Shown here: positions 15,868 through 43,621 of the stretch, piece after piece | Position numbering within the stretch: the stretch's first letter is position 1 | Layout of the letters: every line of letters starts with the position of its first letter | NCBI GenBank assembly: GCA_038888155.1 | Contig: JAWAJB010000001.1 | Coordinates: forward strand, 256,001-320,000 | Direction: 5' to 3' | DNA: 64,000 nucleotides | From: Desulfurococcaceae archaeon | GTDB taxonomy: Archaea > Thermoproteota > Thermoprotei_A > Sulfolobales > Desulfurococcaceae | The notes under the pieces: model-generated | Databases searched by the model: none | Told to the model about the DNA's origin: nothing | The model's input: only the letters and a program-made list of their open reading frames with translations | Position numbers and translations under genes: made by a program

Positions 15868-16032
15868 GTGAGCGTATGCGATCAAGCGCACGCAATGGTT
15901 CTGCTGAGCTACGTGCAGAGGAGGATATCTAAGAACTGCAGGGATAGGGGAGTTGAGTGCGCCCTCGAGGAAATTGAAAAAATTAAGGCCTCAATCGAGG
16001 AAATACTCATAGAGGAGTTCCGGAACCTATGA
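15868..16032 (+). CDS. small helical hypothetical protein (54 aa)
   Basis: Hand-translated GTG..TGA with GGTGA SD at 15858; ...CALEEIEKIKASIEEILIEEFRNL. Confidence 0.45.
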   Translation: MSVCDQAHAMVLLSYVQRRISKNCRDRGVECALEEIEKIKASIEEILIEEFRNL

Positions 16033-16266
16033 GAAGCACGTGAGCAAGCACTCGCCCCTCTCTGTTTTTGCACACACTTTTTTAACAAAGGGAGCTTTAA
16101 CCGCCTTAACTTCCACAAGCCCTAGCTCCTCTAAGGCGCTTATGTAGTCGCTTATAGTGGCTACTCTTATTCTCAGCTTCTCGGCAATGTCGCTTATTGA
16201 GGACTCGCCGTCGCACGCCTTTAGCACTTCTAGCATTCTCTTAAACGCTTCAACGTTTCTCTGCAT
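16027..16266 (-). CDS. small winged-HTH regulator
   Basis: SISDIAEKLRIRVATISDYISALEELGLVEV. Confidence 0.8.
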   Translation of the reverse strand: MQRNVEAFKRMLEVLKACDGESSISDIAEKLRIRVATISDYISALEELGLVEVKAVKAPFVKKVCAKTERGECLLTCFS

Positions 16267-16328
16267 AAACGCTCCACCATTATTACATAAGTGCATATAT
16301 ATTAATACCATATTTTGACTATTTTATG

Positions 16329-16357
16329 ACTTTACGTATTAACGTAAAGTTTAAAAA
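16329..16357. promoter_or_regulatory. perfect 9-bp inverted repeat ACTTTACGT-ATTA-ACGTAAAGT abutting a TTTAAAAA TATA-like box
   Basis: Read directly; lies between the divergent wHTH and TFB-like genes. Confidence 0.6.
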
Positions 16358-16503
16358 CCGTGTTTATGACAATATATAAATGGTGTTGAATGTGGAGGAC
16401 AGGGCGGAAGGAGAGACCGGGACTCTAGGCGAGCCGGCAACGGTGCGCTCCCAGCAAGATCTGGCATCTCGAGGGGCAGGGAGACCTCCTCGAGGCGAGC
16501 GAA

Positions 16504-17046
16504 GTGAAGGAGCGCAAGCTAGTATATGATTACGCGGAGGGCTACGTCATAGACGCTGAAACTGGCGAAGTTGTTGAGAGGATTTACGACTGCTCTCCGC
16601 CCAAGATAGCGCGGGCGGGCGCACTTGAAAGAAGAGGTAAGAGGGCTAGGAAGCCAAAGGCGAAGTTGCGAAGGCTTGTAGAGCGGTACAGGGAGCTGGC
16701 AAACTACGAAGCGCGCGGATACTTAGTTGACTACGAGAAGGTGTTCAGCGAAAGGATGATAAAATCGCTGAAGCACGAGAGGAGCGCTAAGGCGGAGAGA
16801 TTCTTTGCCGAGAAAGGGCTACTGGACAAGCTCGCGAGTATAGTTGAGGAGCTCGACGCGAGGGGTTTAACGAGCGGGATGACGCTCCGAGGGAGGTTGG
16901 TATTAGCTTACGCGCTTTATTCGCTATCCCGCGGCGAAGTCCCAAAATACAGTGAGCTCGGGGCAGTGATATCGGAGTCTACTTTTAGGAGGATCAAGAG
17001 CAGAGTGGAGAAGCTACATGGGTCGTGGAGGGCAGGCACTAAGTAG
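16504..17046 (+). CDS. truncated TFB/TFIIB-like protein (degenerate Zn-ribbon plus partial cyclin-like region)
   Basis: LVYDYAEGYVIDAETGEVVERIYD resembles the crenarchaeal TFB ribbon; C-terminal GLTSG..RGRLVLAYALY..SESTFRR resembles a TFB cyclin repeat. Confidence 0.6.
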   Translation: MKERKLVYDYAEGYVIDAETGEVVERIYDCSPPKIARAGALERRGKRARKPKAKLRRLVERYRELANYEARGYLVDYEKVFSERMIKSLKHERSAKAERFFAEKGLLDKLASIVEELDARGLTSGMTLRGRLVLAYALYSLSRGEVPKYSELGAVISESTFRRIKSRVEKLHGSWRAGTK

Positions 17047-17200
17047 CCTTAATAATATTTTTCTCGTATCGCTTAACGCTAGATCTGTCAGTCCTAAAAT
17101 TTAGAAAAGCTGATGGAGAGACTTTTCCCGAGAAGCGCTGAAATAGCTATTCCTGGATCTATTGTGGAGACTAGCGCCCAAGTTAATAGGCGGAGCGCGC

Positions 17201-19282
17201 TCACTTAAGCCACTTATTCAGCGCGTTGTATAGGGATAGGGCGTGTGCCTCGGCTGCTTTTAGTTGCTCTTGAATGGGTAGCTCTAGCTTGTAGACATAT
17301 CTGTTGAAGCCAGCGTCAAGTACGAGGTAGAATGCACTGGAGAGCGGCGCTGAAACATCGTTCAACCCGGGCCTAACAACACAGCCCTTAGCGCCCTGAC
17401 CACTGTAGACTACTAACCTACCGAGCACTTTTGACTTGAACTTAATAACGGCGTTAGCTATGCCAACCGCTACTTTAAATCCCCACAGCGGGTTTGTCTC
17501 AGGGATTGAGGGCACAATGTATCTAGCTATGAAGCCTCCTTCGCGGTATTCGTGAAAGCCCGCACTGGTGTGGGCTAGAATGTAGTCCATAAGGCCCCTT
17601 ACGACTACGTCCTCTCTACGCCTATAGATGAAGCCTTTGTGCTTAAGCTCTACTTCTACGCGAGCGGGAGTAATGCAGTTTCTAACAGTAGACCCCAGCG
17701 CCGAGAGCTCTAACGCCCCGTTTCTGCAAATGAGGCGGGAAAGGGCTTTCTCAGCGCTAGTGTTTATCCTAATGAAGCTGTAGTCTCCCCCGTGCTCTAC
17801 GTTCACGCTTAGCGCGGGCTCGGGGATCTCTACAACCTCTACTTTTAGGGGGATAAGCTTCTTGGAGGTCCCAGCGACGGAGTCAACAGCAACTGGCTCA
17901 ATGCTCGCTGGCACTTCGCCCATGCAAATAGAGTTTTTGCCCGCTCTCACCTCTTTACCCTCAACCAGGACCTTAACTCTGCTTGGTGCTTTTACCTCTT
18001 TTACGTCTAGCTCTAGGAGGGATAGACCGCCGCACTCGTGCACCCCTGTGCTAGTGAATGCCTTGGCATAAGCATTTACTTCTACCTTCGATGCTGGGCT
18101 CTCAATGGACGCTCCAATCGAGCCCAGGATGTGACGAATTTCGACGTTAAAATAGCAGGGCTCTAAGACGCTAGCCTCTTCATTTACTATCTCTAGCGAG
18201 CTTCCCAGTTTAACGCGGCGAGTCGTGTTATATGTAACTAGGGCTGGGACCTCAGGAGCAACTCTAACTGCGTGTTGCTCTTTCGCGGAGTCGCTTGGGG
18301 AGTCTAAGTATATGAAGGAATGCACTGGCTCGATTACTCCGCACATGCCCATCGTGCAGCAGAATACCTTGCCCTCAGTGCTCCAGCACCGAGAAGCGCT
18401 ATCCTTCTGCGCATTAATCGCGGGCTTTAAGCTTACATCGTGGACGGATAGAGCTTCACCTGAGTCTACTACAATGAAGTCGCTCGCAGTGACTAAAGCT
18501 TTCGCGGGAAGGCTAACGTTTAATTCTACTAGCGCTCCTCCCTCGAGCCTGTGCAATTTGTTTTGTACCTTAAAGACGGGTAAAGACTGGTGGAATCCAG
18601 TGAACTCCGCGCTCGCATCCCTGAGTAGAATAGTGGGCCTTGGGATATCTGGCTCCATCCACACGAGCCAGCCACTGCTCCTAGCCAAGAGCACGCTGTT
18701 AACGAGCGCGACGGCCTCTAGGGGAAATCCCGCTTCGAAGATCCTATCCTCAGTGACTAGGACGGTCCTGCCGTTACTGAAGACAACGCTGTATGACCTA
18801 TATCCAACTGCAGCCTTTACTGGCCTGCCCTTAAACGCCCTCTCGAGCTGTTGCGCGCCGCTGTAAGATGATGTAGCTACGTGAGTCCAGGGCGGATCGT
18901 AGAGAGCGACAATCAAGGCTCCTGGTACCTGCGAGTAAACAGCTTCGCCGCCAAAGAGCTTTACTCCATCTCCGAATTCAACAGCGTAGCCTTTAGCAGT
19001 TTTCACGAGCGCTAGACCGTGCTCTTCGTGAGAGAAGCCCGCTAGGGCGCCGCAGAGGTGTTCATCCCTATTGATGTAGACTGCGCTCTCACAGCCTTCT
19101 GCTTTCTCTACCCACGCCGAGCCGTGGACTCCTGTAGCTGTGATCTTTGGGTGTAACGCTAACCCTTTTAGAACAACTGACTCCATGTCGTAGGGACTTA
19201 AAGTGGGCTCGTAATCTAATAGCGGTAGCTCTAAATGAGATTTCACGCTGTATGGTAGCCTGATCCTCACGCCTGAAGTCAC
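17201..19282 (-). CDS. large beta-rich hypothetical protein (693 aa), downstream of pilin and VirB3-like genes
   Basis: Long ORF, no signal peptide or TM seen, start abuts upstream stop. Confidence 0.75.
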   Translation of the reverse strand: MTSGVRIRLPYSVKSHLELPLLDYEPTLSPYDMESVVLKGLALHPKITATGVHGSAWVEKAEGCESAVYINRDEHLCGALAGFSHEEHGLALVKTAKGYAVEFGDGVKLFGGEAVYSQVPGALIVALYDPPWTHVATSSYSGAQQLERAFKGRPVKAAVGYRSYSVVFSNGRTVLVTEDRIFEAGFPLEAVALVNSVLLARSSGWLVWMEPDIPRPTILLRDASAEFTGFHQSLPVFKVQNKLHRLEGGALVELNVSLPAKALVTASDFIVVDSGEALSVHDVSLKPAINAQKDSASRCWSTEGKVFCCTMGMCGVIEPVHSFIYLDSPSDSAKEQHAVRVAPEVPALVTYNTTRRVKLGSSLEIVNEEASVLEPCYFNVEIRHILGSIGASIESPASKVEVNAYAKAFTSTGVHECGGLSLLELDVKEVKAPSRVKVLVEGKEVRAGKNSICMGEVPASIEPVAVDSVAGTSKKLIPLKVEVVEIPEPALSVNVEHGGDYSFIRINTSAEKALSRLICRNGALELSALGSTVRNCITPARVEVELKHKGFIYRRREDVVVRGLMDYILAHTSAGFHEYREGGFIARYIVPSIPETNPLWGFKVAVGIANAVIKFKSKVLGRLVVYSGQGAKGCVVRPGLNDVSAPLSSAFYLVLDAGFNRYVYKLELPIQEQLKAAEAHALSLYNALNKWLK

Positions 19283-19609
19283 CTACTCGTTTTCGCTCCT
19301 CCGCCTTGGTCGCACTAAGGCGCAGAATAGCGATAGGAGCAACGAAAGCGATTTTGCCTCAAAGCTCATTGAGCCGCGCGAGAAGAGCGATGACAGTATG
19401 CCCGTGATCCCAGCAGCACACCCAAGAGCTAGTGGAGCGGGCACTCCGCGCAGCCCGCCCCATAAGAGGATTATTGCAGGGAAAAAATACAGCAAGTGTT
19501 TGACTCGAAACAGACCGAAAACGCGCTCGTTTAAGATGCCAATATCCCCAATTGATATGAACTTACGCTGCCTACTCTCGAACTCAACCACGCCCTTCCC
19601 CGTTTTCAA
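19283..19609 (-). CDS. PrgI/VirB3-like small membrane protein
   Basis: ERVFGLFRVKHLLYF followed by two TM helices and a basic tail; near the VirB4-like gene. Confidence 0.55.
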   Translation of the reverse strand: MKTGKGVVEFESRQRKFISIGDIGILNERVFGLFRVKHLLYFFPAIILLWGGLRGVPAPLALGCAAGITGILSSLFSRGSMSFEAKSLSLLLSLFCALVRPRRRSENE

Positions 19610-19710: not shown

Positions 19711-20832
19711 CTAGGGACTAACTGCTTCAGCGGCAAGAGAAACTGTTGCAGAGAGCGACCCCGCGAGAGCCTCGATGCCGACTAGTATGTAGGCCTCGCT
19801 CAGGGCGAGGTCTGCTAGGCTAGCGTTCACGCAGTAGGTTTTGCTCCAAGACTTAGCGCTCACTGGCCCCTCCTCGAGCTTTACTCTGGCTAGCCACGAG
19901 GAGGGCCTGTAGTTCTCAGCGTGGTAGAGTATTGTGGCGCCACCAGTGTAAGCCCCCACTGAATTGTAGGTAGTGACAGGGGACGAAATGTCGTAGCTCG
20001 CGTCGTATACATATACTACGGGCACGAAGCTCACGCTAGCAGACGAGCTCACGGAAAAGTGCGCGGAGAGCGAGACGATATCTGCACCGGACGCCCTCAC
20101 GACTCTGTACACTTGCGCGTAGCCGCCTCCTGAGACAATAGTCACAGAGTCGTTCTGGACTGCGTACGAAACTGTTTTCCCGCAGCCGCTCAGCGATCCG
20201 CTGCTCCTGTTGTACGTCAGCGCAGAGAAGGCGCAGTATGGCACGCCAGTTGACGTGGCGAAAATGTCCACGTTGTTGGCGCCGAACTGCGCATAGGGGT
20301 ATATAGATGGACCGCTAACTAAGGCGTCTGCGGAGGCTGAAGAGCCGACGAACATCTTGAAACCAACTGGGAGGACCGCTACGCGCGGTCTCGAAAGGGA
20401 GTCTCGAAGATGATCGAGCAGCTGGGCAACCCCTCCATAGGGGTCCCAAGTGAAAACGTTGCCGAGCGATGTGACAGCCACGAGGTGAGCCCGTCCGCTC
20501 TTCACGGCCTCTGCAGTTGATCTATCGGCTACAAGTTGCGTCCAATTCAGAGCTACGAACAAGCTCTCGCGGCCTTCATATATAACTCCGTCCTCGTTGT
20601 AGGAAGCAATGTACAAAACCCTTGAGCCCACTGTAGAGCGCGCGTATATCGCGCCGTTGGAGTAGTAGAAGTAGAGCTGCTCGGCCCTTCTAGCCGCGTC
20701 GAGCTGTGCTATCTCCGATGCCTCCTGCAACTGCCTTGAAGCAGACCTCGTAACGAGGCTGTAGGCAACAAGGCCCAGCAGTATTAGCGCGGATATGACA
20801 ATTGCCCCAACAGCCTCTGCCTGCCCCCTCAC
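19711..20832 (-). CDS. archaeal type IV pilin-like protein (minor pilin/adhesin)
   Basis: Class III signal peptide MRG|QAEAVGAIVISALILLGL. Confidence 0.75.
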   Translation of the reverse strand: MRGQAEAVGAIVISALILLGLVAYSLVTRSASRQLQEASEIAQLDAARRAEQLYFYYSNGAIYARSTVGSRVLYIASYNEDGVIYEGRESLFVALNWTQLVADRSTAEAVKSGRAHLVAVTSLGNVFTWDPYGGVAQLLDHLRDSLSRPRVAVLPVGFKMFVGSSASADALVSGPSIYPYAQFGANNVDIFATSTGVPYCAFSALTYNRSSGSLSGCGKTVSYAVQNDSVTIVSGGGYAQVYRVVRASGADIVSLSAHFSVSSSASVSFVPVVYVYDASYDISSPVTTYNSVGAYTGGATILYHAENYRPSSWLARVKLEEGPVSAKSWSKTYCVNASLADLALSEAYILVGIEALAGSLSATVSLAAEAVSP

Positions 20833-20836: not shown

Positions 20837-21193
20837 TCACTCCCCGAACTTCTTCACGGGTAGTATCCCCTCGCTGTCCGCGTAAGCGCAAGTGGCGTTC
20901 GAGGGCGCTACGTAGAGGACTTTGCACTCTCCAGGGCCCAGAGCGCCTACTTTCACGCGGCTTTCTCCGCAGATTACTGTTGCTTCTGCTCTCGGCGCAC
21001 TGCCGTAATTTACTGCAATTACTGCGTTATGAGTTGAGTTAAACCGCAGCGCGATTGCTGTGACCGGCAATGCGCCTGCAATCCTCATTGAAGCTACTCG
21101 CTCCACGTTGCTTCTCGCGTGCTGAAACAGCGCGGCTCCACCTGTAAGGACTACGAGGGCTAATGCTATTCCGGCGACAAAGCTAGATGCCAT
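20837..21193 (-). CDS. small pilin-like membrane-anchored protein
   Basis: N-terminal hydrophobic helix plus short beta domain (VNYG..P); operonic with the pilin. Confidence 0.5.
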   Translation of the reverse strand: MASSFVAGIALALVVLTGGAALFQHARSNVERVASMRIAGALPVTAIALRFNSTHNAVIAVNYGSAPRAEATVICGESRVKVGALGPGECKVLYVAPSNATCAYADSEGILPVKKFGE

Positions 21194-23564: not shown

Positions 23565-25676
23565 TTGATAGTGGCTGACATATGGGAGCTGATTTCGTAT
23601 GGGCTGTGGATCGCCTCTGCGTGTGGGCTGAGCAGCTTTATATATGGAGTGATACTCAGAGCGCTGGGCAGAGAAGACTACAGTAGATTCATTGCAGGCG
23701 GTCTATCCGCAGTGCTCGTTGTTGCCTTTGGGTGGGGACTAGTCCAAGCACTCTACGGGGGCGCAGAGCCGCCGGCTCCATACGGCTGGGTTTTCTACGC
23801 AATAGCAGGCGCGCTACTAGCGTGCGCTGCTGTATACTTAGCTATTGGGAAGACGCACGAGGGCTCTCAGTCTCTAATAGGTGCGCTATTAATTGTTGGC
23901 ATAGGCTTCTTCGCGGCATCGCTAGCTACTGGCGTGGAAGTAGGCCCCAGTGGAGCGATATCTGTCACGGCTGTCCCATCGACAACTATGCTCAAGAACA
24001 ACGAGGAGCTCAAGATAGCGGTTATCCCAGCTGGTGGAGACCCGCCTTACTACGTTAGCGTTGACTGGGGAGATGGAGAAAGTAGCGCAGGCTCAACGAG
24101 CGCGAACATATCTTTCACGAAGAGGTACGACTTGCCGGAGGAGAAGCCAGCGGACTCTTTTACAATTAAAGTAGATGTTGCAGATGTAAAGGGGAGGGTA
24201 GGGTTTAACATATTAGCGGTTACAGTGCAGAACCAGGACTACTGTCCACTACCTTGGCCCTTCAGCCTGCTGTGCGGGTTCTACGAGCTCGTATCAGCCG
24301 TAGTGCCGGCAATTGATTTGCAGAAGCTAGTAGAGTGCCCCCTGTTCCCAACGAGCGGCGACCTCCACGATCTATACAATTTCATACTAAGCGCCTCAAT
24401 GGGCGCTCTCGGATTGTTCCTCGCGTTTAATTTAGCGTGGAGAGTTGTTGGGGGAGAGGATGTAGCTGGAGGGCTGGTGCAGTCCCTGAAAGAAAGTGTT
24501 ACCGTAGTTGCACTAGCTCTCCTCGCACCTTACGTCTACAACGCTACGGCTCAGGTCCTCAACGCAGTATCCTACCAGCTAGTGAGTAGAATAGCTATAG
24601 GCTGGGTCTTCGCGTGGATAATGCTGCAGATAGCGCTCGGAGTGGTTATAGGCTACTTCGTGCCCTTTATGGCGCAATACGCTGCTTTCATGGCTGTAAC
24701 GCTCTTTTTAGCAAGTACTGTAGTGTACGCGAGATATATTTTAATAATAACACTAGTAGCTGCCTCGCCGCTACTAGCCGTAAGCTATTTGCACCCGAGT
24801 CTAAGAGGCGTGGTCAGGCACATGGTAGCGATTCTCGCAGGGTTAATGCTCGCGGGGCCACTAGCTGCAGTATTCCTAGTAGTGCTAAACAAGGTTATAC
24901 CCGGGCAGGACATAGTCTTCGGAATACTTTACCCCTTGATAGTTGGTGCGCTACCCTCAATGCTGGGGGTATTTGGAAGCGGGGCGCTGGGGGGCATGGC
25001 AGGAGCAGTTAGAGGGGGACTAGCTACTCTTGGCGGGACAGTTGGGAGAGCGATGGGTAGGAGAGAAGCGGGGGCTACAGCGATTACCAGCTTCCAAGGA
25101 GCCACGGTAGTAGCACCCTCTACGATAAAGCTGAGGGCACCGGCAGTCTCGGCAACACCTAAGAGAGCAACTGGCTTGTATCCAAAATTGGAAACACCGA
25201 CAACTTCGAAGCCACGGATTGAAGGCGCGAGGGTAGCAGAGGTACTGGTTGACGTCTCGAAGCCAGCGCCGATAATTAGGCCCGGGCTCATCAAGCACGC
25301 TGGAGCTGAGGCAAGTCTAAAACGAGAAGTAGCCGAGTCGGTGAGAGAGGTTCAGGCGCTAGGACCGGGCATAGCATACACACTTGAAGGAGCCGAGAAA
25401 GCTAAACGTATAGAGCAAGAAGTAAAACGAGAACTAGTAAGACCAAGATGGGAGAGCCTTAAAGAGTTCACAAAAGACCAGGCAGGGCTAAGCTGGAGAC
25501 AATTGAAGACAAACACAAGAGCCTACGCTCAACATTTCAAGGAGGGGTTAAAGTATCATGTAGAAAGAGAGCTAGGAATAAAGATAGAGAGAGCAGTTGC
25601 TGATACGCATGAAACCAAGGGTACTTATGTAGATAGTGCATCGAGGAGAATTAGGCGTGTTGTTCTCCGCAGTTAG
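23565..25676 (+). CDS. VirB6/CedA-like polytopic membrane protein with PKD/Ig-like domain
   Basis: Many TM segments, PPYYVSVDWGDG PKD motif, RYILIITLVAASPLLAV VirB6-like segment, long hydrophilic tail. Confidence 0.7.
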   Translation: MIVADIWELISYGLWIASACGLSSFIYGVILRALGREDYSRFIAGGLSAVLVVAFGWGLVQALYGGAEPPAPYGWVFYAIAGALLACAAVYLAIGKTHEGSQSLIGALLIVGIGFFAASLATGVEVGPSGAISVTAVPSTTMLKNNEELKIAVIPAGGDPPYYVSVDWGDGESSAGSTSANISFTKRYDLPEEKPADSFTIKVDVADVKGRVGFNILAVTVQNQDYCPLPWPFSLLCGFYELVSAVVPAIDLQKLVECPLFPTSGDLHDLYNFILSASMGALGLFLAFNLAWRVVGGEDVAGGLVQSLKESVTVVALALLAPYVYNATAQVLNAVSYQLVSRIAIGWVFAWIMLQIALGVVIGYFVPFMAQYAAFMAVTLFLASTVVYARYILIITLVAASPLLAVSYLHPSLRGVVRHMVAILAGLMLAGPLAAVFLVVLNKVIPGQDIVFGILYPLIVGALPSMLGVFGSGALGGMAGAVRGGLATLGGTVGRAMGRREAGATAITSFQGATVVAPSTIKLRAPAVSATPKRATGLYPKLETPTTSKPRIEGARVAEVLVDVSKPAPIIRPGLIKHAGAEASLKREVAESVREVQALGPGIAYTLEGAEKAKRIEQEVKRELVRPRWESLKEFTKDQAGLSWRQLKTNTRAYAQHFKEGLKYHVERELGIKIERAVADTHETKGTYVDSASRRIRRVVLRS

Positions 25677-26254
25677 AGAAATTTGAGTTCAACCAGATCT
25701 GCTTCGTAATACAGAAAACCCACATCCATGGCCAGGCCCACGGCAATAGCAAAGTTTTTCCTCAAAGCCTCCTCCGTCTCACCAAAGAATCCGGGAACGT
25801 CGCGGGCGTAAATGGTCGCTATTATTCCATGTAGGTCTCCGAGAGTTATGCCCGGATTCGCTTCGATGTTAGCTATGACGTTTAATAGCGCGCCTGGTTC
25901 TATGCGGAATCTAACACCGTCAAACCGCTCTATCACTAGTCGGTCACCATCCGGATCTGGTCTTTCTTCAATGGTCTTATACCTTGGGTATATTAGGATT
26001 TTGTCTAGTTTCTCTAGGAACGTGTAAATGTGGGTTCCCTTATCTGTGCAGTCCACGATTCCAAGGTAACACGGTTGTTCGTCCGGGCTTCCAAGTAGAA
26101 GCCTAGAGTCAAGCAATATTGCGTTCTCTCTATCATCTACGTGTGCTCTAAGCATAGCTGGTTTGTAAACACTAACCCATTCGCCCTGAGGAGTTCTAAC
26201 AGCATAAAGTATTTTCTTCTCTCTCATCTTTTCAGGGGCGGTTTTAGCGTCCAT
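25673..26254 (-). CDS. hypothetical protein
   Basis: 193-aa ORF with ATG start and upstream TTTATAAA. Confidence 0.65.
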   Translation of the reverse strand: MDAKTAPEKMREKKILYAVRTPQGEWVSVYKPAMLRAHVDDRENAILLDSRLLLGSPDEQPCYLGIVDCTDKGTHIYTFLEKLDKILIYPRYKTIEERPDPDGDRLVIERFDGVRFRIEPGALLNVIANIEANPGITLGDLHGIIATIYARDVPGFFGETEEALRKNFAIAVGLAMDVGFLYYEADLVELKFL

Positions 26255-26299
26255 TGAGATTCCCTGATAATGATTTCACAACTTTATAAATTGAACAGT

Positions 26300-26506
26300 T
26301 CAGTAATATTTTCGTTCAAGCTCTTTTATGGCATTTAACAACTCATCGACATCGTTGCGTAGCGGATCATTGGCTGGCTCTCTACATAGAGCGGCTTTAC
26401 AGCACTCAAGGATCCCTTTACGCTTCACGAGTATTTCTCTTAGTGTGAGAAGAGATAAAAAACCTCCTTGAAAATGCTCAGCCCCATGATTTTTCTTACA
26501 ATCCAT
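26300..26506 (-). CDS. small hypothetical protein
   Basis: ORF track; AT-rich segment. Confidence 0.4.
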   Translation of the reverse strand: MDCKKNHGAEHFQGGFLSLLTLREILVKRKGILECCKAALCREPANDPLRNDVDELLNAIKELERKYY

Positions 26507-26540
26507 AATGCAATAAATCTTACTAATAAAAATGCAATTA

Positions 26541-26768: not shown

Positions 26769-26793
26769 GATTTACACTCTCAACATGGGCAGT

Positions 26794-30004: not shown

Positions 30005-30022
30005 ATAGGGGTCTGCCATGAT

Positions 30023-31227: not shown

Positions 31228-31230
31228 AGC

Positions 31231-31671: not shown

Positions 31672-31713
31672 CAAAACATCTCATGTTTCCAAATTTGGAT
31701 ACCCAGGTCTTGT

Positions 31714-32474: not shown

Positions 32475-32478
32475 TTAT

Positions 32479-35764: not shown

Positions 35765-35767
35765 CGT

Positions 35768-35965
35768 TTATTTTCTGGGTTTCATCTTGACTACAAAAAC
35801 TGTGTGCTTACCCCTCGGCGAAGTACCCTCATAGTGGTTGAACACGCCTTTACACTTAGGGCACTCGAGCATTCTGACCTCGTAGAACCCGTACCTCCAG
35901 GGCTCCCGCAGTAGCTTAAAGCTGCTTGCATCGGATTCGAAACTGCAGAACGGGCACTTAACCAC
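35768..35965 (-). CDS. small Zn-ribbon protein (CPFC..CPKC)
   Basis: GTG at 35965 with GAGGTGA SD; VKCPFC..WRYGFYEVRMLECPKCKGVF. Confidence 0.7.
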   Translation of the reverse strand: MVKCPFCSFESDASSFKLLREPWRYGFYEVRMLECPKCKGVFNHYEGTSPRGKHTVFVVKMKPRK

Positions 35966-35970
35966 GCTGC

Positions 35971-36120
35971 TCACCTCTGCGCTTTCCTGATGTGGATTGC
36001 ACTGTTCTCGAAAACCCACTCGATCTCATCGTTCTCCCTCAGCTCAAGGAGCTTGCGAACCTCCCTGGGAACAGTTGCCCCGTAGTACCCGCCGATCCCG
36101 GTTCGAGCCACAACGAGCAT
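35971..36120 (-). CDS. AbrB/MazE/SpoVT-family DNA-binding protein (49 aa)
   Basis: ATVPREVRKLLELRENDEIEWV..IHIRKA. Confidence 0.75.
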   Translation of the reverse strand: MLVVARTGIGGYYGATVPREVRKLLELRENDEIEWVFENSAIHIRKAQR

Positions 36121-36388
36121 AAACCCTGCAGCACCCACTATAGAAAACCCCCGCTCAAGCATAAAACCTTTCACAAAGACAAACAAGCACAAAACAGGAC
36201 AAACCAAGCAGAAAGCAAACAAAACAATTGGGTGAAGACACGGCAACTTTGTCCCAACGCGTTCTGATTGACTCCACACTGTTAGAATGAGTCAGCGCAG
36301 TGTATAACGCCGTGCAACACGTCTCTACAACTGTGTAACAGCAATAGTACTGTTTTAAAACGGTTTCTATATACTACGGGTGAGCTGA

Positions 36389-36757
36389 GTGCCGAGGAGA
36401 CCTAGGAGAGAGGTTGACTACGAGTACAGTGTGAAAGCCTTGATGAGCAAAGACGAGAGAAAAGAGATCGTCGCGGCAATACTCGAAACACTGGCCAAGG
36501 AGCCCTTGACGACAAGCGAGGTCTCCCGCCGGGTCATCGCGGCGATGGGTAAACCGGTTCCAAGGTGGAGGATATACAGGACGCTACGGCTCCTCGAGAA
36601 GTACGGCTTCGTGAAGGCGAGGAAAATAATGTTCGAGAAGCAGTTGCTCTGGTGCACTACCGAGAGAACTGAATCGCTGCTGAGTACACTTCGCGGCCAT
36701 CGGGATCATACACAACAACCCTCCCATCGCGCACGGCAACAAAGTAGCCAGCACTGA
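36389..36757 (+). CDS. winged-HTH (PadR/ArsR-like) DNA-binding protein
   Basis: AILETLAKEPLTTSEVSRR..RIYRTLRLLEKYGFVKA. Confidence 0.75.
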   Translation: MPRRPRREVDYEYSVKALMSKDERKEIVAAILETLAKEPLTTSEVSRRVIAAMGKPVPRWRIYRTLRLLEKYGFVKARKIMFEKQLLWCTTERTESLLSTLRGHRDHTQQPSHRARQQSSQH

Positions 36758-39557
36758 TGAAACCGATGAGAATGCCGTACTCCTTCTCATCAACGCAAAC
36801 CCTAAACCCACCGGACACCGCGAGCTCTCTGCACTGCTGAGAGATCCGGCCAGGCTCACCAAGTGCAGTAACCACGGGCTCAGCGGCAACAGGCTTCTCC
36901 TCGCCGGCGGCTTGCACAGCTGGAGAAGCAGCCGCGGCTTCCTCCACGCGAGCAATCTTAGCTTCCTCCATCTTCACCGAGAATATCTTTACTTTGCCGT
37001 GGACTTCTCCGTGCTTCTCATACAGCTGCCTGAGCTTCTCGAAGCATTTCTCATCGGTCCAGCTGTGGATCTCCTTAAAGTCCTTGGCGGATTCTTTAAT
37101 CCAGTTTCTCACCACATGCTCTGGATGCGTCTCGAGCTCATTACAGGACTCTACCTCTATAGCAACAGCATTAGAGTAGAGGGGTCTCCAAGTCGATTTA
37201 TCGACTGGTACCGCCACGAGGTCCGGTCTAGCCTTGACCGATGGATCTTGCTTAGCGGGTAGAACCACGTATCCCTTACCATAGTATTTCAGCAAAACCC
37301 TTCTAGCTATCCCGTACCCCTCTTCGCTCGGAGCCGCCTGCTTAAGACCCCTGAACAGTCCTTTAATATAGACCAACATCTTTCTATTTCCTTCACGTTC
37401 AACCTCAATGTAGCCTAGTGCGCTAAGCCGGGCAACAGCGTCCTCGAGGTCTCTTCTGGGAGCACCAAGCCTTGTGGCTAAATCGGTGAGAGCTATTCTC
37501 TTAGACTTGTATATCTCGTATAATGCAAGCATTTCAAGGGGTCTAACAGGGTCTATGTATTTTAGCAATGTGTTGAGCATGCTCTTCAAATCAGCTTTAA
37601 CCGCTTCATCGGGATCAAAGATCTTCGTATATATGTTCTCTCTTGCAACTCTATGCTCTACATAGTCCATTTGCACTAAAACAGGTGGAGGTTGTTGCTC
37701 ACCTGGTCGAGCAGTAACTTTCACTACGGCTCTACCAATCGTTAAGCCCGTCAAAGCCTCTGCCAAAGCGTCTGCGAAAGAAGCATCCATCATTGATAAT
37801 CTTTTAATATCGCTACCGCCGACCATGAACGCTACTTTCACAGCGCAGTTTGTTAGAATGGACTGTAGTAGCGTCTGCGGTATCTGCCCTGTATGTTGAT
37901 GCGCTATAATCAAGTGCAACCCATACTTTCTCGCCTCCGAGAGAACAGTATCGATAACCGGTAAATCGGCTACGAACTGGAACTCATCTATGATCAGGAA
38001 TACAGGTGTTCTGGGTCTGTTTAAACGTGCACGCGCTAGAGCTTCGAACCACAGCTTCATCACTATGGTGCTAGCTACTAGTCTTGCAAAGTTCTCCCCT
38101 AGGTCTGCCTTGGGTATCGAGAATATGGTGATCGATCCAGGCGATAGAAGCTTATCCATATCTATAGTTGTTTTAGATGTCAGCCTCAAGAGCAACTTGT
38201 CATGTGCATAAGCTTCAAGCCTTGAAAGCGCTGAAATAAATGTCTGGTCCTGCATGTTCTGCAATGCTTCCAACTGCGCTTGCCACTCAACATCATCTAT
38301 ATCTAAGTCTAATTCTCCCTTGTATAGAGCTAGAATTGCATTGTAAAGATCTGCCATCTTGGGAGAATCCGATTTAGAGTAGAGCGCTCGTAATATTACC
38401 TGCAACAAGTACTTCACGTTTACGGCAGTCTCCATCAGCTTCAAGACCTCTTTGAAAATCTCTAACAGAATGTCTATAGCGATAGACACAGCGTGGTCTC
38501 TGTCCTCGATCTTTGGGAGGTCTAACGGGTTTAACCCAAACGGGCTCTTGATGGGGCATAGGTATATCGACTCGGGGATTTCCTCGGCCAATTCTCGTGC
38601 CATGTCTCCATGGGGGTCCACTATAACTATCGAGGCGCTTCCAAGCTCTTTCAACCTATGAACAAGTAGCTTGATGAAAGAGGTTTTGCCGGATCCTGTT
38701 TGCCCAATAACGTATACGTGCCTAAACATGTCCTCTAGGCCTAGCCTGAACTCGCGACCATCCTCCAAGACGCCTATGCGAAAGCTCCTTTCACCAGTTC
38801 TCTCGGGTATGACTAGAGGTAGAGGCGACCCCCTCACGAAGCCTATCTTGTGTAGGCTTGGATCTGGCAACCTCATGATTTCGTGGAGCAGATCCTCGGT
38901 AAGCACTATTTTGTTTCTTTCGCCGATCAGCCTTTCAAGAAAGCCTAGCTTAGGTGGTTGCAACAGCCTCTCTAAATCGCATTGTTTCCTAGCCTTCTTC
39001 CTCTCCCAGGAGAGCCTTACGCTGCATGAGCCCTCTACGAGCTTTTCTATGAGCTTACGCGATTTCTTGTCCGGCGCTAGGAGTAGTACCTTGCCCAATA
39101 CAACTTTGCTTACGCGGTTTCGCAGTAGCTTAGCCCTCTCCCTGTATGCTTGATTATTATACTTCACTGATTTATTCATCAGCTTCGAGATCTCATTAGC
39201 GAAGACCATCTTTAAGCCCGGGTCTCGGGCGATGCTTACGCAAACTCCGCTTACACTATTAAGCGAGTTCACGAGGCCGGCTATATCTGAAACAACGATG
39301 TCCGTGAACCAGAAGTCAAAGCAGTTCTTTAACCTTGCATCCGATGCGTGTATTTCACTATTGAATAATTGTAATATGCTGTTGTAGCTAGCTTTTGAGA
39401 CACCGAAGAAGTTCTTCAGCGTGTCAATAGATATTGGTGTTTCTACAAATACGTGTAGCTTCTTTGAGTCGTTCACAATGCACAGCGTGAACTCAGGCCC
39501 AAAGACAGAGAATGGCGGCTTCGAGGAGCCAACTCTGGGCAAGAGCTCAACGAGCAC
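36657..39557 (-). CDS. VirD4/TraG (HerA-FtsK superfamily) coupling ATPase with C-terminal wHTH and PD-(D/E)xK-like domain
   Basis: RHVYVIGQTGSGKT, VDPHGD, LIIDEFQ, EARKYGL, AHQ; RPDLVA..AIEVES near the C-terminus. Confidence 0.85.
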   Translation of the reverse strand: MLVELLPRVGSSKPPFSVFGPEFTLCIVNDSKKLHVFVETPISIDTLKNFFGVSKASYNSILQLFNSEIHASDARLKNCFDFWFTDIVVSDIAGLVNSLNSVSGVCVSIARDPGLKMVFANEISKLMNKSVKYNNQAYRERAKLLRNRVSKVVLGKVLLLAPDKKSRKLIEKLVEGSCSVRLSWERKKARKQCDLERLLQPPKLGFLERLIGERNKIVLTEDLLHEIMRLPDPSLHKIGFVRGSPLPLVIPERTGERSFRIGVLEDGREFRLGLEDMFRHVYVIGQTGSGKTSFIKLLVHRLKELGSASIVIVDPHGDMARELAEEIPESIYLCPIKSPFGLNPLDLPKIEDRDHAVSIAIDILLEIFKEVLKLMETAVNVKYLLQVILRALYSKSDSPKMADLYNAILALYKGELDLDIDDVEWQAQLEALQNMQDQTFISALSRLEAYAHDKLLLRLTSKTTIDMDKLLSPGSITIFSIPKADLGENFARLVASTIVMKLWFEALARARLNRPRTPVFLIIDEFQFVADLPVIDTVLSEARKYGLHLIIAHQHTGQIPQTLLQSILTNCAVKVAFMVGGSDIKRLSMMDASFADALAEALTGLTIGRAVVKVTARPGEQQPPPVLVQMDYVEHRVARENIYTKIFDPDEAVKADLKSMLNTLLKYIDPVRPLEMLALYEIYKSKRIALTDLATRLGAPRRDLEDAVARLSALGYIEVEREGNRKMLVYIKGLFRGLKQAAPSEEGYGIARRVLLKYYGKGYVVLPAKQDPSVKARPDLVAVPVDKSTWRPLYSNAVAIEVESCNELETHPEHVVRNWIKESAKDFKEIHSWTDEKCFEKLRQLYEKHGEVHGKVKIFSVKMEEAKIARVEEAAAASPAVQAAGEEKPVAAEPVVTALGEPGRISQQCRELAVSGGFRVCVDEKEYGILIGFISAGYFVAVRDGRVVVYDPDGREVYSAAIQFSR

Positions 39558-39671
39558 GAGGGCTCACCTTTTGCGGTGGATCCAAATTTGGAAACCACGG
39601 ATCATCTTACACACCTCCATTGGAAGAGCGCGTGCTTTAAAAGCACTCCACATCTTAAACGGGGGTGTATT

Positions 39672-39992: not shown

Positions 39993-40224
39993 CCTCTACG
40001 CAGCTTTTCGCTACGCTCAACCTATTACCTCGGGTTTCTACTCGCTGTGCCCTGCACTTTTGTGCAATAGCGCGACTTCGGGACAACGCAAGTGAGAGCA
40101 GCTCAATGAATCTCAGCGAGTGCGCTTTTTCAACCGCTCCTCTAAAATTGGAGACAAAGGCAGATTAAGCGAGCTCCTTGGAGCGCGGCTTTTTAAGCTC
40201 AAATTAGTTCTTCGGGGTACAGCT

Positions 40225-40674
40225 TTGAAAGAGAAGAAGGCCATTAAGGGCGTCAGCGAGCTGATCACCATTATCAGCATACTGCTAGTAGCTGTAGTAG
40301 CTGTGTTCTCTTTTAGGGCCTGGGTCTCCTCGCAACAGCAGAGAATGGGCAGCATTGACATGGCCACTGCAACGTACAGCGTCCAGTACACTTCACCCGG
40401 CAACGCAGCTGTATCATTGCTTGTGAGGAACAACATGCCCAGTAGCATAAATGTAGCGAACGTGACTGCGATACTGTCAAACAACGCAGTGCTTTTCGCG
40501 GGCCAGAACTTCACAACTACGCCCGCTATTCCAGTTTCAACCTCAGCGAAATCTGACACTTTAATCTTCCTGACGATCTCAGGGCTACAGAACGCTGCAA
40601 TTAGGGAGCTGAGCGTGCAAATAGTTGACCCATCCACTAACCAAACGCAGTGGATTAAAGCTGTAGGGGGCTAG
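40225..40674 (+). CDS. archaeal type IV pilin
   Basis: TTG start; class III signal KKAIKG|VSELITIISILLVAVVAVF. Confidence 0.8.
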   Translation: MKEKKAIKGVSELITIISILLVAVVAVFSFRAWVSSQQQRMGSIDMATATYSVQYTSPGNAAVSLLVRNNMPSSINVANVTAILSNNAVLFAGQNFTTTPAIPVSTSAKSDTLIFLTISGLQNAAIRELSVQIVDPSTNQTQWIKAVGG

Positions 40675-40697
40675 AGCAACAGCTTCACCTAAACCCC

Positions 40698-42167
40698 ATG
40701 CACTCTTTTTTAACCCCTCTTTCTTCAATGGAGAGGGCCTTGAAGATTAAGCTCAGACCATCTTTAACGCTAAAGCTAAAGAGAGCAAGTTCTTTGGCAC
40801 TCCTCCTTGGGAGAGGGGCAGAGAAGAGAGTTCAGCAGACCCTAGTTAGGGGATCTGAGGAGCCATTCAACGCCGTTACAAGCTACGGCATTGGCGCCTA
40901 CCTCGTCTCAATAGTTGAATCTGGGGGCAAACTCGAGTACGTAGTTCTACCCGTCTCAGAGCTAGAGGAGATGCGGAACGCTGTAAGCAAGAAGCTCGAC
41001 GACATAGTGCTGCTCTTGAGAAAAGGCAACGACCCCGGCGACATCCTATCCGCTGTCTTGAAAGTGCCGCGAAATAGAGTGGCCGATGCCCTGTATGTTC
41101 TTAGAACGTTAACGGGGTACGGCAAGCTGCAGGTTCTCCTCGACGACCCATACATTCAAGACATAAGCGCAGAGGGACCAGGCAGAATATGGATAAGGCA
41201 CTCCCTTGTGGAGGCGCTCAAGCCGGAGCAGGACTTCCTCCCCACTAACATCTACTTGAGCAGCGTTGAGGAAGTCGTAACGCTACAGCAAATCATAGCC
41301 ACTAAGTGCAACACGTACATCTCAACTTCCAACCCAATAGTTGACGCGCAGCTACCAACCCACGATGGAGGGCACAGGGCTCACTTGGTTTTCCCGACGA
41401 TATCTCAGAGCAGGCCCGAAATAGTCATTAGGAAGAGGTTGCCCCAGCCGCCTCGCCTAGATCAATTGGTTGACGCAGGAGTTTTGCCGAGAGCTGTTGC
41501 GGATTTATTCAGCTTAGTAATTAGAGGAAGAGGTTCCATAGTTATAGCTGGCCCGCCTGGCTCTGGCAAGACAACGCTGCTTCGGAGCGTGCTCTACAGC
41601 CTCACGCCGAAGACCTGGAAGGTAATAGTCATCGAGGATACAGGCGAGATTGATCCTCCCGCTGGGTCTCCGTGGACAAGGTACACTGCGTTCGAGCTCG
41701 GAGCAGTGAGGGTCGACCTATTTGACCTAGCCAAGGCCTCGTTGCGCTCGTCTGGGACGCGTTTAATAGTAGTGGGCGAGACGCGAGGGGCTGAAGCACA
41801 AGTCTTAAGCCAGGCGCTACTCGTGGGATTGGGGGCGCTCACTACTTTCCACGGCTCATCCCCAGAGGAAGTAATAGCCAGGCTCATGAGCCCTCCAATA
41901 GGCTTAACGCAGGGGCAGATAGGCATGTTCCACTATATCGCTGTCATGGGCTTTGGCGAGAAGCCCAGAAGGCAGCTAAAGCTCCTCTCTGAATTAGTTT
42001 ACAGCGCAAGCGAGAGCAAATTAAGCGCAAGAGCGCTTTGGAGGAGGGAGCAGGATGGATTAAACACATCGCTCGAGGACCTCGTCTCTAGGTCTGCTAG
42101 ATTTAATGAGCTGAAGGCGAGGCTCGAGGCACCGCAAAACAGCTCTCTGAGAGCAGAAGAAGGGTGA
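40698..42167 (+). CDS. type II/IV secretion (VirB11/UpsE/TadA-like) pilus assembly ATPase
   Basis: GYGKLQVLLDDP, GPPGSGKTT, IEDTGE, VGETRG, TTFH. Confidence 0.9.
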   Translation: MHSFLTPLSSMERALKIKLRPSLTLKLKRASSLALLLGRGAEKRVQQTLVRGSEEPFNAVTSYGIGAYLVSIVESGGKLEYVVLPVSELEEMRNAVSKKLDDIVLLLRKGNDPGDILSAVLKVPRNRVADALYVLRTLTGYGKLQVLLDDPYIQDISAEGPGRIWIRHSLVEALKPEQDFLPTNIYLSSVEEVVTLQQIIATKCNTYISTSNPIVDAQLPTHDGGHRAHLVFPTISQSRPEIVIRKRLPQPPRLDQLVDAGVLPRAVADLFSLVIRGRGSIVIAGPPGSGKTTLLRSVLYSLTPKTWKVIVIEDTGEIDPPAGSPWTRYTAFELGAVRVDLFDLAKASLRSSGTRLIVVGETRGAEAQVLSQALLVGLGALTTFHGSSPEEVIARLMSPPIGLTQGQIGMFHYIAVMGFGEKPRRQLKLLSELVYSASESKLSARALWRREQDGLNTSLEDLVSRSARFNELKARLEAPQNSSLRAEEG

Positions 42168-43621
42168 TGCCTATCCTCGCGGGACTTGAGGAGAAGTACA
42201 AGCGCATTGTCGCAACTGCGAACCCCAATGTTGGGAAGTACGCGAGTGCTCCAAGGGAGCTCCGCCTTGCGATCATCTCATCTGTAGTGCTGTTATCGTC
42301 AACTGCCGCACTACACTGCGCAGGCGCACTAGACTTCTCTAATCCACTAGTAGCTGTTATTGTAGCGGCCTTGCCTGCTGTCCTGTGGCTCAAGGTAGCT
42401 GACACTGTTGCAGGCGTCTCATCGCTGCGCAGAAAGGTAGAGGAAGAGCTAGCCTTTCTCGTTGTGGCTTCAGCCGCTGTGAGCAAGACTGGACTAGAGC
42501 TAGCTGAGATGTTGAAATACGCAGCGAGCAGCAAGGTGTTTAGGGGCGTTAAGGCTCTCGGAGAGCGGTTTGCTCAACTAAGTAGTCTCTTTGGGGCTAA
42601 CCAAGCAATGCACGCGCTTTCTAGAATAGCTAGCGGCAAGGCCAGGCTACTGCTCACTGAGTACGCTGCATCCCTATCGGCGGGCACAGCTCTCTACCTT
42701 CTCAGAGATCGCGCGGGGGAATTCGTGAGGGCCGCAGCTTTAGATGCAGATAGGGCTGTTCAATCGAGGGCTGCCCTTGGATTAGTGCTAACTACTATCT
42801 TCGGCGTTGCCCCAAGCCTATTCAGCGGCATGCTAATGCTTCAGGGCATTGGAGTGGAGGGAAACATAGCTGAGCCAGGAATTGAAGCCTACGCGTACTC
42901 TTTAGCGATTGCGGCTTTCTCGCCCCTAGTTTTAGCGATGATACCTGGCTACCCGCTCTCAATGAGCGTCGTTTTAGACAAGAGGCTAGTTAAGTTGCTG
43001 AACGCCCTGACTGCCGCTGGGACTGCCCTGCTAGCTCTACCAGCCGTTGCGCTTGTCATCAACGGAAGCGAATTTAAGGGCAGCGCCCTCAAGCTTGCCC
43101 CTATATCTATAGCGCTGGGCTCGGCGGGATTTGCCTTAATCCTATCGGCTATGTTTACCTCTAGAGTAGATGCCTCAGTTGAAGAAATGCTGAACCACGT
43201 GAGGGTGTGGCGCAGCTTGCACCTCTACAGGCCCAGCGCTCTCGAGAGAGAGGAGAGGAGGGGGGCGAGGCTCTGGACCGCAGACTACCTAGCAGAGGCC
43301 TTGAGCTTCTTCAGGCAAGTTGGCGACTGCGATCCAGCAGTCTTCGAGCTGCTCGCAATGTATGTCCACGAGTGCAAGCGCTCGGCGAAGAAGTGCCTTC
43401 AAACTCTCGCGGTAATGCTAGCAGTAGTTCTCATTTCACCTGCTATGAATGCTTCTATGTTGAGCTTAGGCGCTAGGGCATTCCCGCAGTACATCCTGCT
43501 TGGGTATTTATCGAGCGTTGCCTATGGATTTATTGCGAGCAAGGTAGCTCTAGGGGAGAGCAAGAGCACTCTCCTCCCCGCTCTTTCAGCTCTAATCTTC
43601 GCCCTAGTTGCTCCAGATTGA
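42164..43621 (+). CDS. TadC/UpsF-like pilus membrane platform protein
   Basis: Polytopic, VEEELAFL motif, coupled to the ATPase. Confidence 0.7.
   Translation: MMPILAGLEEKYKRIVATANPNVGKYASAPRELRLAIISSVVLLSSTAALHCAGALDFSNPLVAVIVAALPAVLWLKVADTVAGVSSLRRKVEEELAFLVVASAAVSKTGLELAEMLKYAASSKVFRGVKALGERFAQLSSLFGANQAMHALSRIASGKARLLLTEYAASLSAGTALYLLRDRAGEFVRAAALDADRAVQSRAALGLVLTTIFGVAPSLFSGMLMLQGIGVEGNIAEPGIEAYAYSLAIAAFSPLVLAMIPGYPLSMSVVLDKRLVKLLNALTAAGTALLALPAVALVINGSEFKGSALKLAPISIALGSAGFALILSAMFTSRVDASVEEMLNHVRVWRSLHLYRPSALEREERRGARLWTADYLAEALSFFRQVGDCDPAVFELLAMYVHECKRSAKKCLQTLAVMLAVVLISPAMNASMLSLGARAFPQYILLGYLSSVAYGFIASKVALGESKSTLLPALSALIFALVAPD

Follow-up and report, generated by a model that had tools for sequence, protein, structure and literature searches.

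The window analyzed here is a stretch of 64,000 nucleotides from the genome of a hot-spring Desulfurococcaceae archaeon (assembly GCA_038888155.1, hereafter G000). Between 16.0 and 43.7 kb it holds a gene cluster that is probably the integrated copy of a conjugative plasmid, combining a transfer core of the pNOB8 type, a replicon of the pRN1 type, and a composite mating apparatus in which genes of a type IV secretion system (T4SS) stand together with those of a type IV pilus (T4P); this copy is probably immobilized at present. The cluster spans ~28 kb in three gene sets and is bounded by a subtilase gene (14398-15606) and by a tRNA-Gly(GCC) gene (Table 1). For comparison, 301 genomes of the order were searched with VirB4 and the pilus ATPase; 13 loci from at least seven genera were fetched and compared by tblastn, and they share the same core in a shuffled gene order, namely the VirB4, VirB6-like, VirD4-like, VirB2-like, pilin, pilus ATPase, and TadC-like genes, and those of two proteins of 108 and 693 amino acids (aa).

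Regarding the transfer genes, sequence comparison gives good support for naming two ATPases of the cluster VirB4 and VirD4. The VirB4/TrbE-like ATPase had 38.3% identity with the pNOB8 protein over 99% of the length (E 7e-122), and when searched against plasmids it matched 24 plasmid records with 80% or more of the query covered; the top 15 rows were all archaeal, 14 of them from Sulfolobaceae plasmids and one from Thermococcus nautili. The CedB and HerA models matched it far more weakly (1.1e-6 and 6e-5), and with 27.6 bits against a cutoff of 700 for the CedB model NF041017, the protein does not qualify as a CedB; this placement is one by E-values. The VirD4/TraG-like ATPase has no transmembrane (TM) segment and carries a C-terminal winged-helix extension; it matched the models VirD4-like CD1115 (2.9e-18) and CedD (5.7e-18), and it aligned with a 1025-aa protein of pNOB8 at 36.5% identity over 950 aa, C-terminal extension included (E 2.6e-159). 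The Walker A and B motifs are intact in both proteins and in the pilus ATPase described below.

When the window was compared with all pNOB8 open reading frames (ORFs) of at least 50 aa, three genes were matched: the TraG-like, the TrbE-like, and the VirB6-like one, the last being homologous to a 604-aa ORF of the plasmid (E 3e-16). For residues 225-500 of the VirB6-like protein, the ten best named neighbours in the ESM Atlas all belonged to the TrbL/VirB6 family or clan, with feature scores of 0.90-0.93 and a structure TM by query of 0.62-0.69, while residues 131-218 form a PamR-like domain; a sequence-profile search of the PDB with this family gave nothing meaningful. The VirB2-like protein is homologous to a 106-aa ORF of pNOB8 (the window copy matches it with E 1.1e-4, and relatives with E-values as low as 1e-8), and 11 of the 13 related loci have its gene; the Pfam model T4SS_pilin matched six of ten family members weakly, the best with E 0.0035 and all under the cutoff. 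Its topology fits a pilin of the TedC type; its family profile matched no pilin among the PDB chains, and Foldseek and VIA-align returned only generic helical hairpins for the model, a result that says nothing for or against a pilin fold.

Transcribed from the minus strand of the left block is an operon encoding proteins of 118 aa, 373 aa (pilin-like), 108 aa (two TM segments), and 693 aa, whereas the plus-strand operon consists of the VirB4-like ATPase, followed by a 70-aa protein and then by the 703-aa polytopic VirB6-like protein. The 693-aa gene was found in 10 of the 13 related loci, in eight of them directly after the 108-aa gene, and its family has 61 representatives among 1.84 billion proteins. 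The AlphaFold2 model of this protein (pLDDT 86) comprises beta-propeller and beta-sandwich domains with a C-terminal helix; a PDB profile search gave nothing meaningful, Foldseek returned only generic beta-propeller and Ig-domain proteins, and the ESM Atlas no usable match. As for the 108-aa protein, an earlier note, made from the sequence of this DNA alone, had called it VirB3-like; size, two TM segments, and a conserved position agree with the name, while the PDB profile search with its family was without match.

The pilus module has its core trio, a secretion ATPase, a polytopic platform, and a class III pilin, in one operon, and the same trio occurs in 11 of the 13 related loci. The ATPase matched the NCBIfam models of FlaI (4.7e-44) and of the TadA family (2.3e-38), both under the cutoff, and the TadC-like gene follows it in all 12 loci that have a TadC-like gene. 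The UpsF model gave the TadC-like protein 23.9 bits for a cutoff of 400, which does not make it an UpsF orthologue. Homologues of the 149-aa pilin are present in 11 of the 13 loci, mostly directly adjoining the ATPase or the TadC gene, and N-terminal homologues of the 373-aa pilin-like protein lie beside the clusters of genomes G190, G067, G203, and G224. Both proteins have class III N-termini, in line with the earlier note, which had listed two class III pilins and a pilin-like gene; of its three, the 118-aa protein is uncertain as a pilin, as it lacks a cleavage motif with charged residue or glycine, matched no family, and had no homologue among the relatives. The other genes of the note lie where it had placed them, and domain or topology evidence agrees with its names for the VirB4, VirD4, VirB6-like, VirB2-like, pilus ATPase, and TadC-like proteins. 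No class III signal peptidase was found in the element, and the sole Peptidase_A24 gene of G000 lies on another contig.

The two modules are linked well beyond the window. Counting as VirB4 carriers the genomes with a full-length protein of at least 54% identity (n = 20; the fragments of G008 and G187 were excluded), the pilus ATPase, again at 54% identity or more, was present in 19 of 20; the exception, G267, is 84% complete and has its VirB4 on a 3-kb contig. The two genes share a contig in 13 genomes and are on different contigs in six; 11 of the same-contig pairs are spaced by 5.0-17.6 kb, while the genomes measure 1.2-2.4 Mb, and the other pairs by 42 kb (G190) and 117 kb (G041). Related clusters also occur in cultivable species of Desulfurococcus or Fervidicoccus. 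In the family of the window, the ATPase (E 1e-70) occurs only in genomes that also have VirB4 (7 of 52), and in G135 a VirB4 of 40% identity lies 2.3 kb from an ATPase of 57% identity. It follows that the linkage is not by chance, and a reading in which the modules are neighbours by accident, the pilus genes serving ordinary surface adhesion unlinked to DNA transfer, is highly improbable: these figures disfavour it, as does the fact that the nearest relatives of the ATPase clade are again linked to a DNA-transfer ATPase, although archaeal genomes have several T4P loci each (G000 has three other paralogues of the T2SSE family), the two wide spacings fall on its side, and in three genomes with the ATPase (G068, G051, and G239) VirB4 was not matched at E 1e-20. 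A search of genome contigs for related loci gave 23 loci, 13 of them archaeal; the bacterial rows were short P-loop matches. The earlier note had regarded its reading as endangered if pilus and transfer genes were unlinked in relatives, or if the ATPases fell in housekeeping clades; instead, the linkage is kept, the TrbE-like and TraG-like proteins of pNOB8 are the counterparts matched by VirB4 and VirD4, and the pilus ATPase likewise stands outside the other T2SSE paralogues of G000.

Two observations on G190 may be added. In locus L029 (G190:C2), the 693-aa homologue at 12290-14380 has an internal stop and the TadC-like protein was matched in two pieces at 5004-6450, which points to decay in a cluster that is otherwise closely related to that of the window. 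In L030, on the same contig, a MoxR-type AAA ATPase (16296-17246) and a PQQ-like beta-propeller protein (5011-6702) stand amid the T4SS genes; MoxR/vWA sets near archaeal pilus loci are reported in PMC4858521.

In the tree of the pilus ATPase (26 rows), the element-linked copies form one clade (99/99), and together with four copies linked to CedB they form a clade with support 100/100, apart from the three other T2SSE paralogues of G000, one of which groups with a Sulfolobaceae paralogue (98/97). UpsE joins the clade weakly (51/90), on long branches that carry a long-branch warning, and orthology with UpsE does not follow from it; UpsE is nominally the top Sulfolobaceae match of the pilus ATPase in both genomes with a true upsF. 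The four CedB-linked ATPases (L066-L069, from G026:C19, G027:C2, G030:C28, and G038:C32) are 41-46% identical to that of the window, and belong to an operon of a class III pilin, the pilus ATPase, a 7-TM platform, a ~800-aa protein without TM segments, and a CedB-like ATPase; the CedB model matched the latter with E 3e-70 to 9.5e-97 (best stretch), under the cutoff. This arrangement is present in four of the five genomes having both markers, which in G040 are on different contigs, and its order indicates that a Ced-type ATPase is co-operonic with a pilus module in these families. As for CedB in the genus of the window, the model had no match at E 1e-10 in G000, and 16 of 16 other genomes had 1-3 weak matches, typically two ORFs ~8 kb apart.

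The same data bear on the idea of a single hybrid machine, in which the pilus ATPase would be the equivalent of VirB11, and the pilins would form a short pseudopilus or aid the assembly of the VirB2-like pilus. The ATPase scores, besides FlaI, on the TadA "conjugal transfer-associated" (2.3e-38), TrbB (1e-27), and VirB11 (2.2e-23) models; the VirB2-like gene directly adjoins the pilin-ATPase-TadC set in the window, G034, G046, and G190; and the sister clade shares an operon with a CedB-like ATPase in four genomes. However, all the NCBIfam rows of the ATPase are far under their cutoffs, and the full T4P core is kept in 11 of 13 loci, such archaeal cores being described in PMC4858521 as builders of filaments, so that a single machine is improbable.

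The third gene set, which the earlier note had omitted (26.3-36.3 kb) along with the tRNA-Gly gene at 43676-43753, includes replication and methylase genes. The replicative helicase had 34% identity with residues 384-838 of ORF904 of pRN1 (E 5e-62), and 32-36% with the Rep proteins of pRN1, pRN2, pHEN7, and pDL10; the primase-polymerase is a separate gene fused to PriX, and did not match the corresponding domain of ORF904, and homologues of ORF56 and ORF80 of pRN1 were not found in the window. The 367-aa gene that overlaps the methyltransferase had no family match. This set is joined to the others by an 18-bp palindrome, GTATCCAAATTTGGAAAC, present with near variants at five sites, each readable on both strands and all within the element, where 0.03 would be expected in the window; two sites lie in the T4SS part (25178 and 39578) and three in the replication part (27709, 31685, and 32023), which ties the parts into one unit. 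The core motif was absent from the related element loci except once in L018, and occurred once in the unrelated bacterial locus L055.

Regarding mobility, a tRNA gene abuts six of 14 clusters (the window and five of the 13 related ones), always with its 3' end toward the cluster, and two of the six are tRNA-Gly(GCC), in different families; the position of the window locus thus fits integration at a tRNA 3' end. VirB4 is present in just two of the 15-16 other genomes of the genus, and the VirD4 of the window has 76% identity to that of G108, from another family, versus 63% to that of G002, from the same genus. In G008, an archaeal-type integrase adjoins a pair of winged-helix and TFB-like genes, and the VirB4 there is a C-terminal fragment. 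Among the Logan contigs from hot-spring metagenomes, the flanks at 22.0-27.7 and 39.3-42.0 kb are covered by single exact contigs (depth 61-70), while between 27.3 and 39.3 kb there are many variants 90-99% alike, at a summed depth of 81-412; two runs of one study have contig breaks at 27738 and 39292. Joints with short sides were left out of this evidence, such as that from 25200 to 27709 (side of 20, between two palindrome copies), and may be assembly artefacts.

Several results weigh against an integrated conjugative plasmid. The depths just given are sums of contigs from mixed communities, and the window may itself come from the sample of the best run. No integrase of PF16795 or PF00589 was found on the window and its contig, and tblastn with the G008 and pNOB8 integrases did not match the window, leaving no integrase remnants; no direct repeat of the tRNA-Gly region of at least 13 bp was detected inside the element with blastn-short, nor any flanking pair in a repeat search of the window; and comparison with five other genomes of this genus, with which synteny ends at 12145, did not yield a clear empty site. 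A relaxase was not found in the locus either, and PMC9905601 states that it is likewise missing from all the archaeal plasmids described. Moreover, the genus g24 has the cluster in four of four genomes; in the three compared, flanking genes are shared and the divergence of the cluster (45-69%) is close to that of the flanks (63-78%). In addition, G034, G067, and G108 have, genome-wide, no archaeal-type integrase of PF16795, and one Xer-type recombinase far from the cluster; together with the fixed copies of g24, this means that the family is not always mobile. Finally, the replication and methylase genes were absent by tblastn from all 13 related loci, and hence this segment could be a separate element lodged in the cluster.

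These last three points also speak for the alternative of a domesticated chromosomal exchange system, comparable to Ted or to Ced and Ups together, in which ~26.3-36.3 kb would be an unrelated small element that landed inside. To them may be added that one contig in run X4 skips 27924-31950, and that in a 2025 mLife paper (PMC11868833) the VirB4 of Fervidicoccales, Thermoproteales, and Desulfurococcus is complementary to CedB/CedD and is treated as a conserved exchange system. Domestication is nonetheless rather unlikely for the window: VirB4 is patchy in its genus, a relative has an integrase, the putative palindromic operator spans both the T4SS and replication parts, VirD4 lies within the high-depth, variant-rich stretch, six of 14 loci have a tRNA junction, and among named proteins VirB4 and VirD4 are closest to those of plasmids, with CedB scoring 27.6 bits versus 700. 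An integrated plasmid copy therefore remains preferred. Because an integrase is lacking, the copy would be immobile or mobilized only in trans, and the "self-contained" transfer system of the earlier note has to be given up, as the window has neither integrase nor att repeat, and the only prepilin peptidase is elsewhere in the genome. Its other suggestion, an intermediate between conjugative plasmids and domesticated systems, fits the relatives, which range from the integrase-bearing copy of G008 to copies fixed in all four genomes of g24; the one genome of g24 that was searched as a whole had no archaeal-type integrase.

As for regulation, the 94-aa winged-helix regulator is 79% identical to the G008 gene beside the integrase and TFB-like gene. 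The TFB-like protein had been called a truncated TFB in the earlier note. A profile of four homologues weakly matched the second cyclin repeat of Pyrococcus TFB (1AIS_B, E 0.0043), with positions 96-174 aligned to residues 112-193, and the TFB zinc ribbon (1PFT, E 0.0046), the two being in the right order; one of the four family members also matched Zn_Ribbon_TF weakly (E 0.0013). These matches agree with that name, while the window copy has no Pfam match and none of the ribbon cysteines, of which a CxxC is kept in the G108 copy; a single cyclin repeat was matched, and 180 aa are too few for two. Homologues occur in the clusters of G008, G190, and G108. Of the three small genes at the end of the middle block, that of the 83-aa zinc ribbon recurs beside VirB4 in G046, G134, and G203, and the 122-aa winged-helix one beside VirB4 in G002.

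Judged from these parts, the mating apparatus would have a T4SS composed of the VirB2-like pilin, the TrbL/VirB6-like channel, the VirB4 ATPase, and the soluble TraG/VirD4-like ATPase, whose winged-helix tail may recruit DNA, with the 108-aa and 693-aa proteins as family-specific partners. A dedicated T4P, built by the FlaI/TadA-like ATPase and the TadC-like platform from class III pilins cut by the host prepilin peptidase, would establish contact between cells, as Ups pili do in Sulfolobales, and expression of the set would be turned on by the TFB-like protein, the winged-helix and AbrB-type regulators, and the palindromic operator in its five copies. Contact through pili, the transfer of DNA and its direction, and the regulatory roles are predictions from sequence. 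As relatives keep the same pairing, the functions of cell contact and DNA transfer seem to be passed on together.

The closest known relatives are the plasmids of the pNOB8 family (pNOB8, pKEF9, pING1, pHVE14, and others), which have homologous VirB4/TrbE-like, ~1000-aa TraG/VirD4-like, VirB6-like, and 106-aa VirB2-like proteins, with the same C-terminal extension on the TraG/VirD4-like protein and, like the window, no relaxase. In contrast, the pilus ATPase, the TadC-like protein, the pilins, and the 108-aa, 693-aa, and TFB-like proteins had no match in pNOB8 by tblastn at E 1e-2, and the window lacks a pNOB8-type integrase and ParA/ParB, has a replicon of the pRN1 type, and belongs to another host lineage. 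With the pRN1 family it shares the SF3/P4-type helicase, and differs in the organization of the primase-polymerase.

By its list of parts, the cluster resembles the integrative and conjugative elements (ICEs) of thaumarchaea reported by Krupovic in 2019 (PMC6563490), which carry VirB4/VirD4, VirB6, VirB3, TadC, FlaI/PilT ATPases, pilins, and TFIIB homologues, so that what the earlier note had presented as known was incomplete. As described there, they also have a gene order that is not conserved and no relaxase, but they have integrases and a prepilin peptidase, and their TFIIB is accompanied by ParB, all missing from the window, and they come from another phylum; the likeness is drawn from the described parts. 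The Ted system of Thermoproteales, as presented by Beltran in 2023 (PMC9905601), includes a VirB2-like pilin with a cleavable-looking signal peptide, VirB6-like and VirB4-like proteins, and a HerA/VirD4-like ATPase nearby; it is chromosomal and domesticated, with ParA and Rad50 as neighbours and no linked T4P in that account. The window, instead, has no ParA or Rad50 domain in the locus, has the T4P module, and its cluster is patchy in the genus; the likeness to TedA and TedB is by description. Finally, Ced, Ups, and TFB3 of Sulfolobales have the same proposed division of labour, with a T4P for contact, a T4SS-like DNA translocon, and a truncated TFB as a possible activator, yet these sets are at three separate loci while those of the window form one cluster, and its proteins are distinct by the CedB score, by the UpsF score, and by the weak grouping of UpsE reported above. 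The combination of parts was thus already described for thaumarchaeal ICEs, and the cluster is a variant of that kind. For Desulfurococcaceae-type archaea, which according to recent papers lack pili of the Ups type, the combination does not appear to have been described in the passages and searches covered, although supplementary tables may contain such loci.

As for the surroundings, DNA searches with the flanks and tblastn of all window ORFs against the regions that follow deoxyhypusine synthase showed that synteny with the five genomes of the same genus stops ~4 kb left of the cluster. The genes of a glycosyltransferase, a ferritin, and the subtilase at 12355-15606 have their nearest DNA matches scattered and non-syntenic in genomes of the genus. 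On the other side, 43.9 to ~55 kb had no DNA match in those five genomes, and a GAPDH-like gene (43882-44940), the sole one found in G000, has 36-38% identity to the copies of the genus and 42-49% to those of other families; on these grounds, the variable region may reach past tRNA-Gly. Two short stretches, ~61884-61994 and ~49947-49991, are 92-97% identical to many sites in related genomes and to the T-arm of tRNA; they had no ARAGORN call and are probably intron-containing tRNA genes. A whole-assembly search for a second copy of the element or for a spacer gave just a 35-nt tRNA fragment on C3. With 2.42 Mb, G000 is larger than the other genomes of the genus (0.9-1.5 Mb), its contamination is 6.4%, and a second deoxyhypusine synthase copy, 77% identical, is at C29:377-1396; the assembly may be a mix of two related organisms.

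Table 1. Features of the window; positions are in nucleotides of the window unless given in kb or as contig coordinates
Feature	Position	Strand	Evidence or description
Window	G000:C1:256001-320000		G000 assembly of 2.42 Mb, 134 contigs
Left block	16.0-26.3 kb		Winged-helix regulator, TFB-like gene, four-gene minus operon, plus operon, 193-aa gene at the end
Winged-helix regulator, 94 aa	16027-16311	-	Pfam HTH_5 1.4e-7
TFB-like protein, 180 aa	16504-17046	+	Cysteine-less ribbon, linker, one cyclin repeat
693-aa all-beta protein	17201-19282	-	Conserved core gene, function unassigned
108-aa protein	19283-19609	-	Two TM segments; "VirB3-like" by size, topology, and conserved position alone; kept in 8 related loci
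373-aa pilin-like protein	19711-20832	-	N-terminus of class III type, MRGQAEAVGAIV..., predicted cut between RG and QAE; BasB weak, 1.1e-4
118-aa protein	20837-21193	-	Pilin status uncertain; hydrophobic N-terminus, one TM segment at residues 5-23
VirB4/TrbE-like ATPase, 608 aa	21244-23070	+	Pfam AAA_10 6.6e-14; NCBIfam topped by VirB4-type conjugal ATPase models, 3.7e-31
TrbL/VirB6-like polytopic membrane protein, 703 aa	23565-25676	+	~10 hydrophobic segments, Ig-like outer domain
18-bp palindrome, five copies	25178-39595		Sites given in the text
193-aa conserved accessory gene	25673-26254	-	Homologues adjoin VirB6 in G034 and G283
Middle block	26.3-36.7 kb		GC 0.44-0.47, below the rest; small ORFs, replication, HNH, methylase, small DNA-binding/zinc-ribbon genes
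P4/pRN1-type replicative helicase, 616 aa	28154-30004	+	DUF5906 5.2e-21; TIGR01613 119.3 bits, over the cutoff of 108.7
Primase-polymerase fused to PriX, 350 aa	30175-31227	+	PriX 2.2e-26; LigD_Prim-Pol 2e-5
HNH endonuclease, 146 aa	31231-31671	+	HNH 2.9e-12
N6 DNA methyltransferase, 733 aa, and overlapping 367-aa gene	32479-35764	-	N6_Mtase 5.9e-12; PglX-like 3.3e-10
Three small genes: 83-aa zinc-ribbon, 102-aa AbrB/MazE-type, 122-aa winged-helix	35768-36757		MazE_antitoxin 3.7e-6; TrmB 9.1e-5
Right block	36.7-43.6 kb		VirD4/TraG-like gene (-) divergent from VirB2-like, class III pilin, FlaI/TadA-like ATPase, and TadC-like genes
VirD4/TraG-like ATPase, 966 aa	36657-39557	-	DUF87, TrwB_AAD_bind, TraG-D_C, T4SS-DNA_transf
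VirB2-like conjugative pilin, 106 aa	39672-39992	+	N-terminal hydrophobic signal-like helix and two-helix hairpin, pLDDT ~90
Class III signal peptide pilin, 149 aa	40225-40674	+	N-terminus ...KKAIKG followed by VSELITIISILLVAVVAVF, predicted cut between KG and VSE
FlaI/TadA-like pilus assembly ATPase, 489 aa	40698-42167	+	T2SSE 1.1e-21
TadC-like platform, 485 aa	42164-43621	+	7 TM segments; UpsF weak, 1.6e-5
tRNA-Gly(GCC)	43676-43753	-	ARAGORN; 3' end toward the cluster, 55 bp beyond the last gene

In conclusion, in Desulfurococcaceae-type lineages a dedicated pilus module is physically tied to DNA-transfer genes, which are of the VirB4 type in some loci and of the CedB type in others. The 2025 papers on Ced and Ups (PMC11868833, PMC11823120) state that Ups genes are exclusive to Sulfolobales and that VirB3 homologues are absent in archaea, and conclude from the exclusivity of Ups that other Crenarchaea need no aggregation or use other appendages. 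The loci described here suggest otherwise, and offer concrete candidates for the missing contact step. Tentatively, the T4P clade, which adjoins VirB4/VirD4 in the family of the window and shares an operon with CedB-like genes elsewhere in the order, in other families, may have travelled with archaeal DNA-transfer ATPases, contact pili and translocon having begun as one plasmid-borne unit, of which Ups and Ced of Sulfolobaceae would be split, domesticated descendants and the element in the window a surviving plasmid-stage form. The system also gains two core proteins that are as yet unstudied, a membrane protein of 108 aa and a beta protein of 693 aa, and the series from the copy with an integrase, through that of the window without one, to those fixed in a genus provides a way to study how plasmids become DNA-exchange systems of their hosts.

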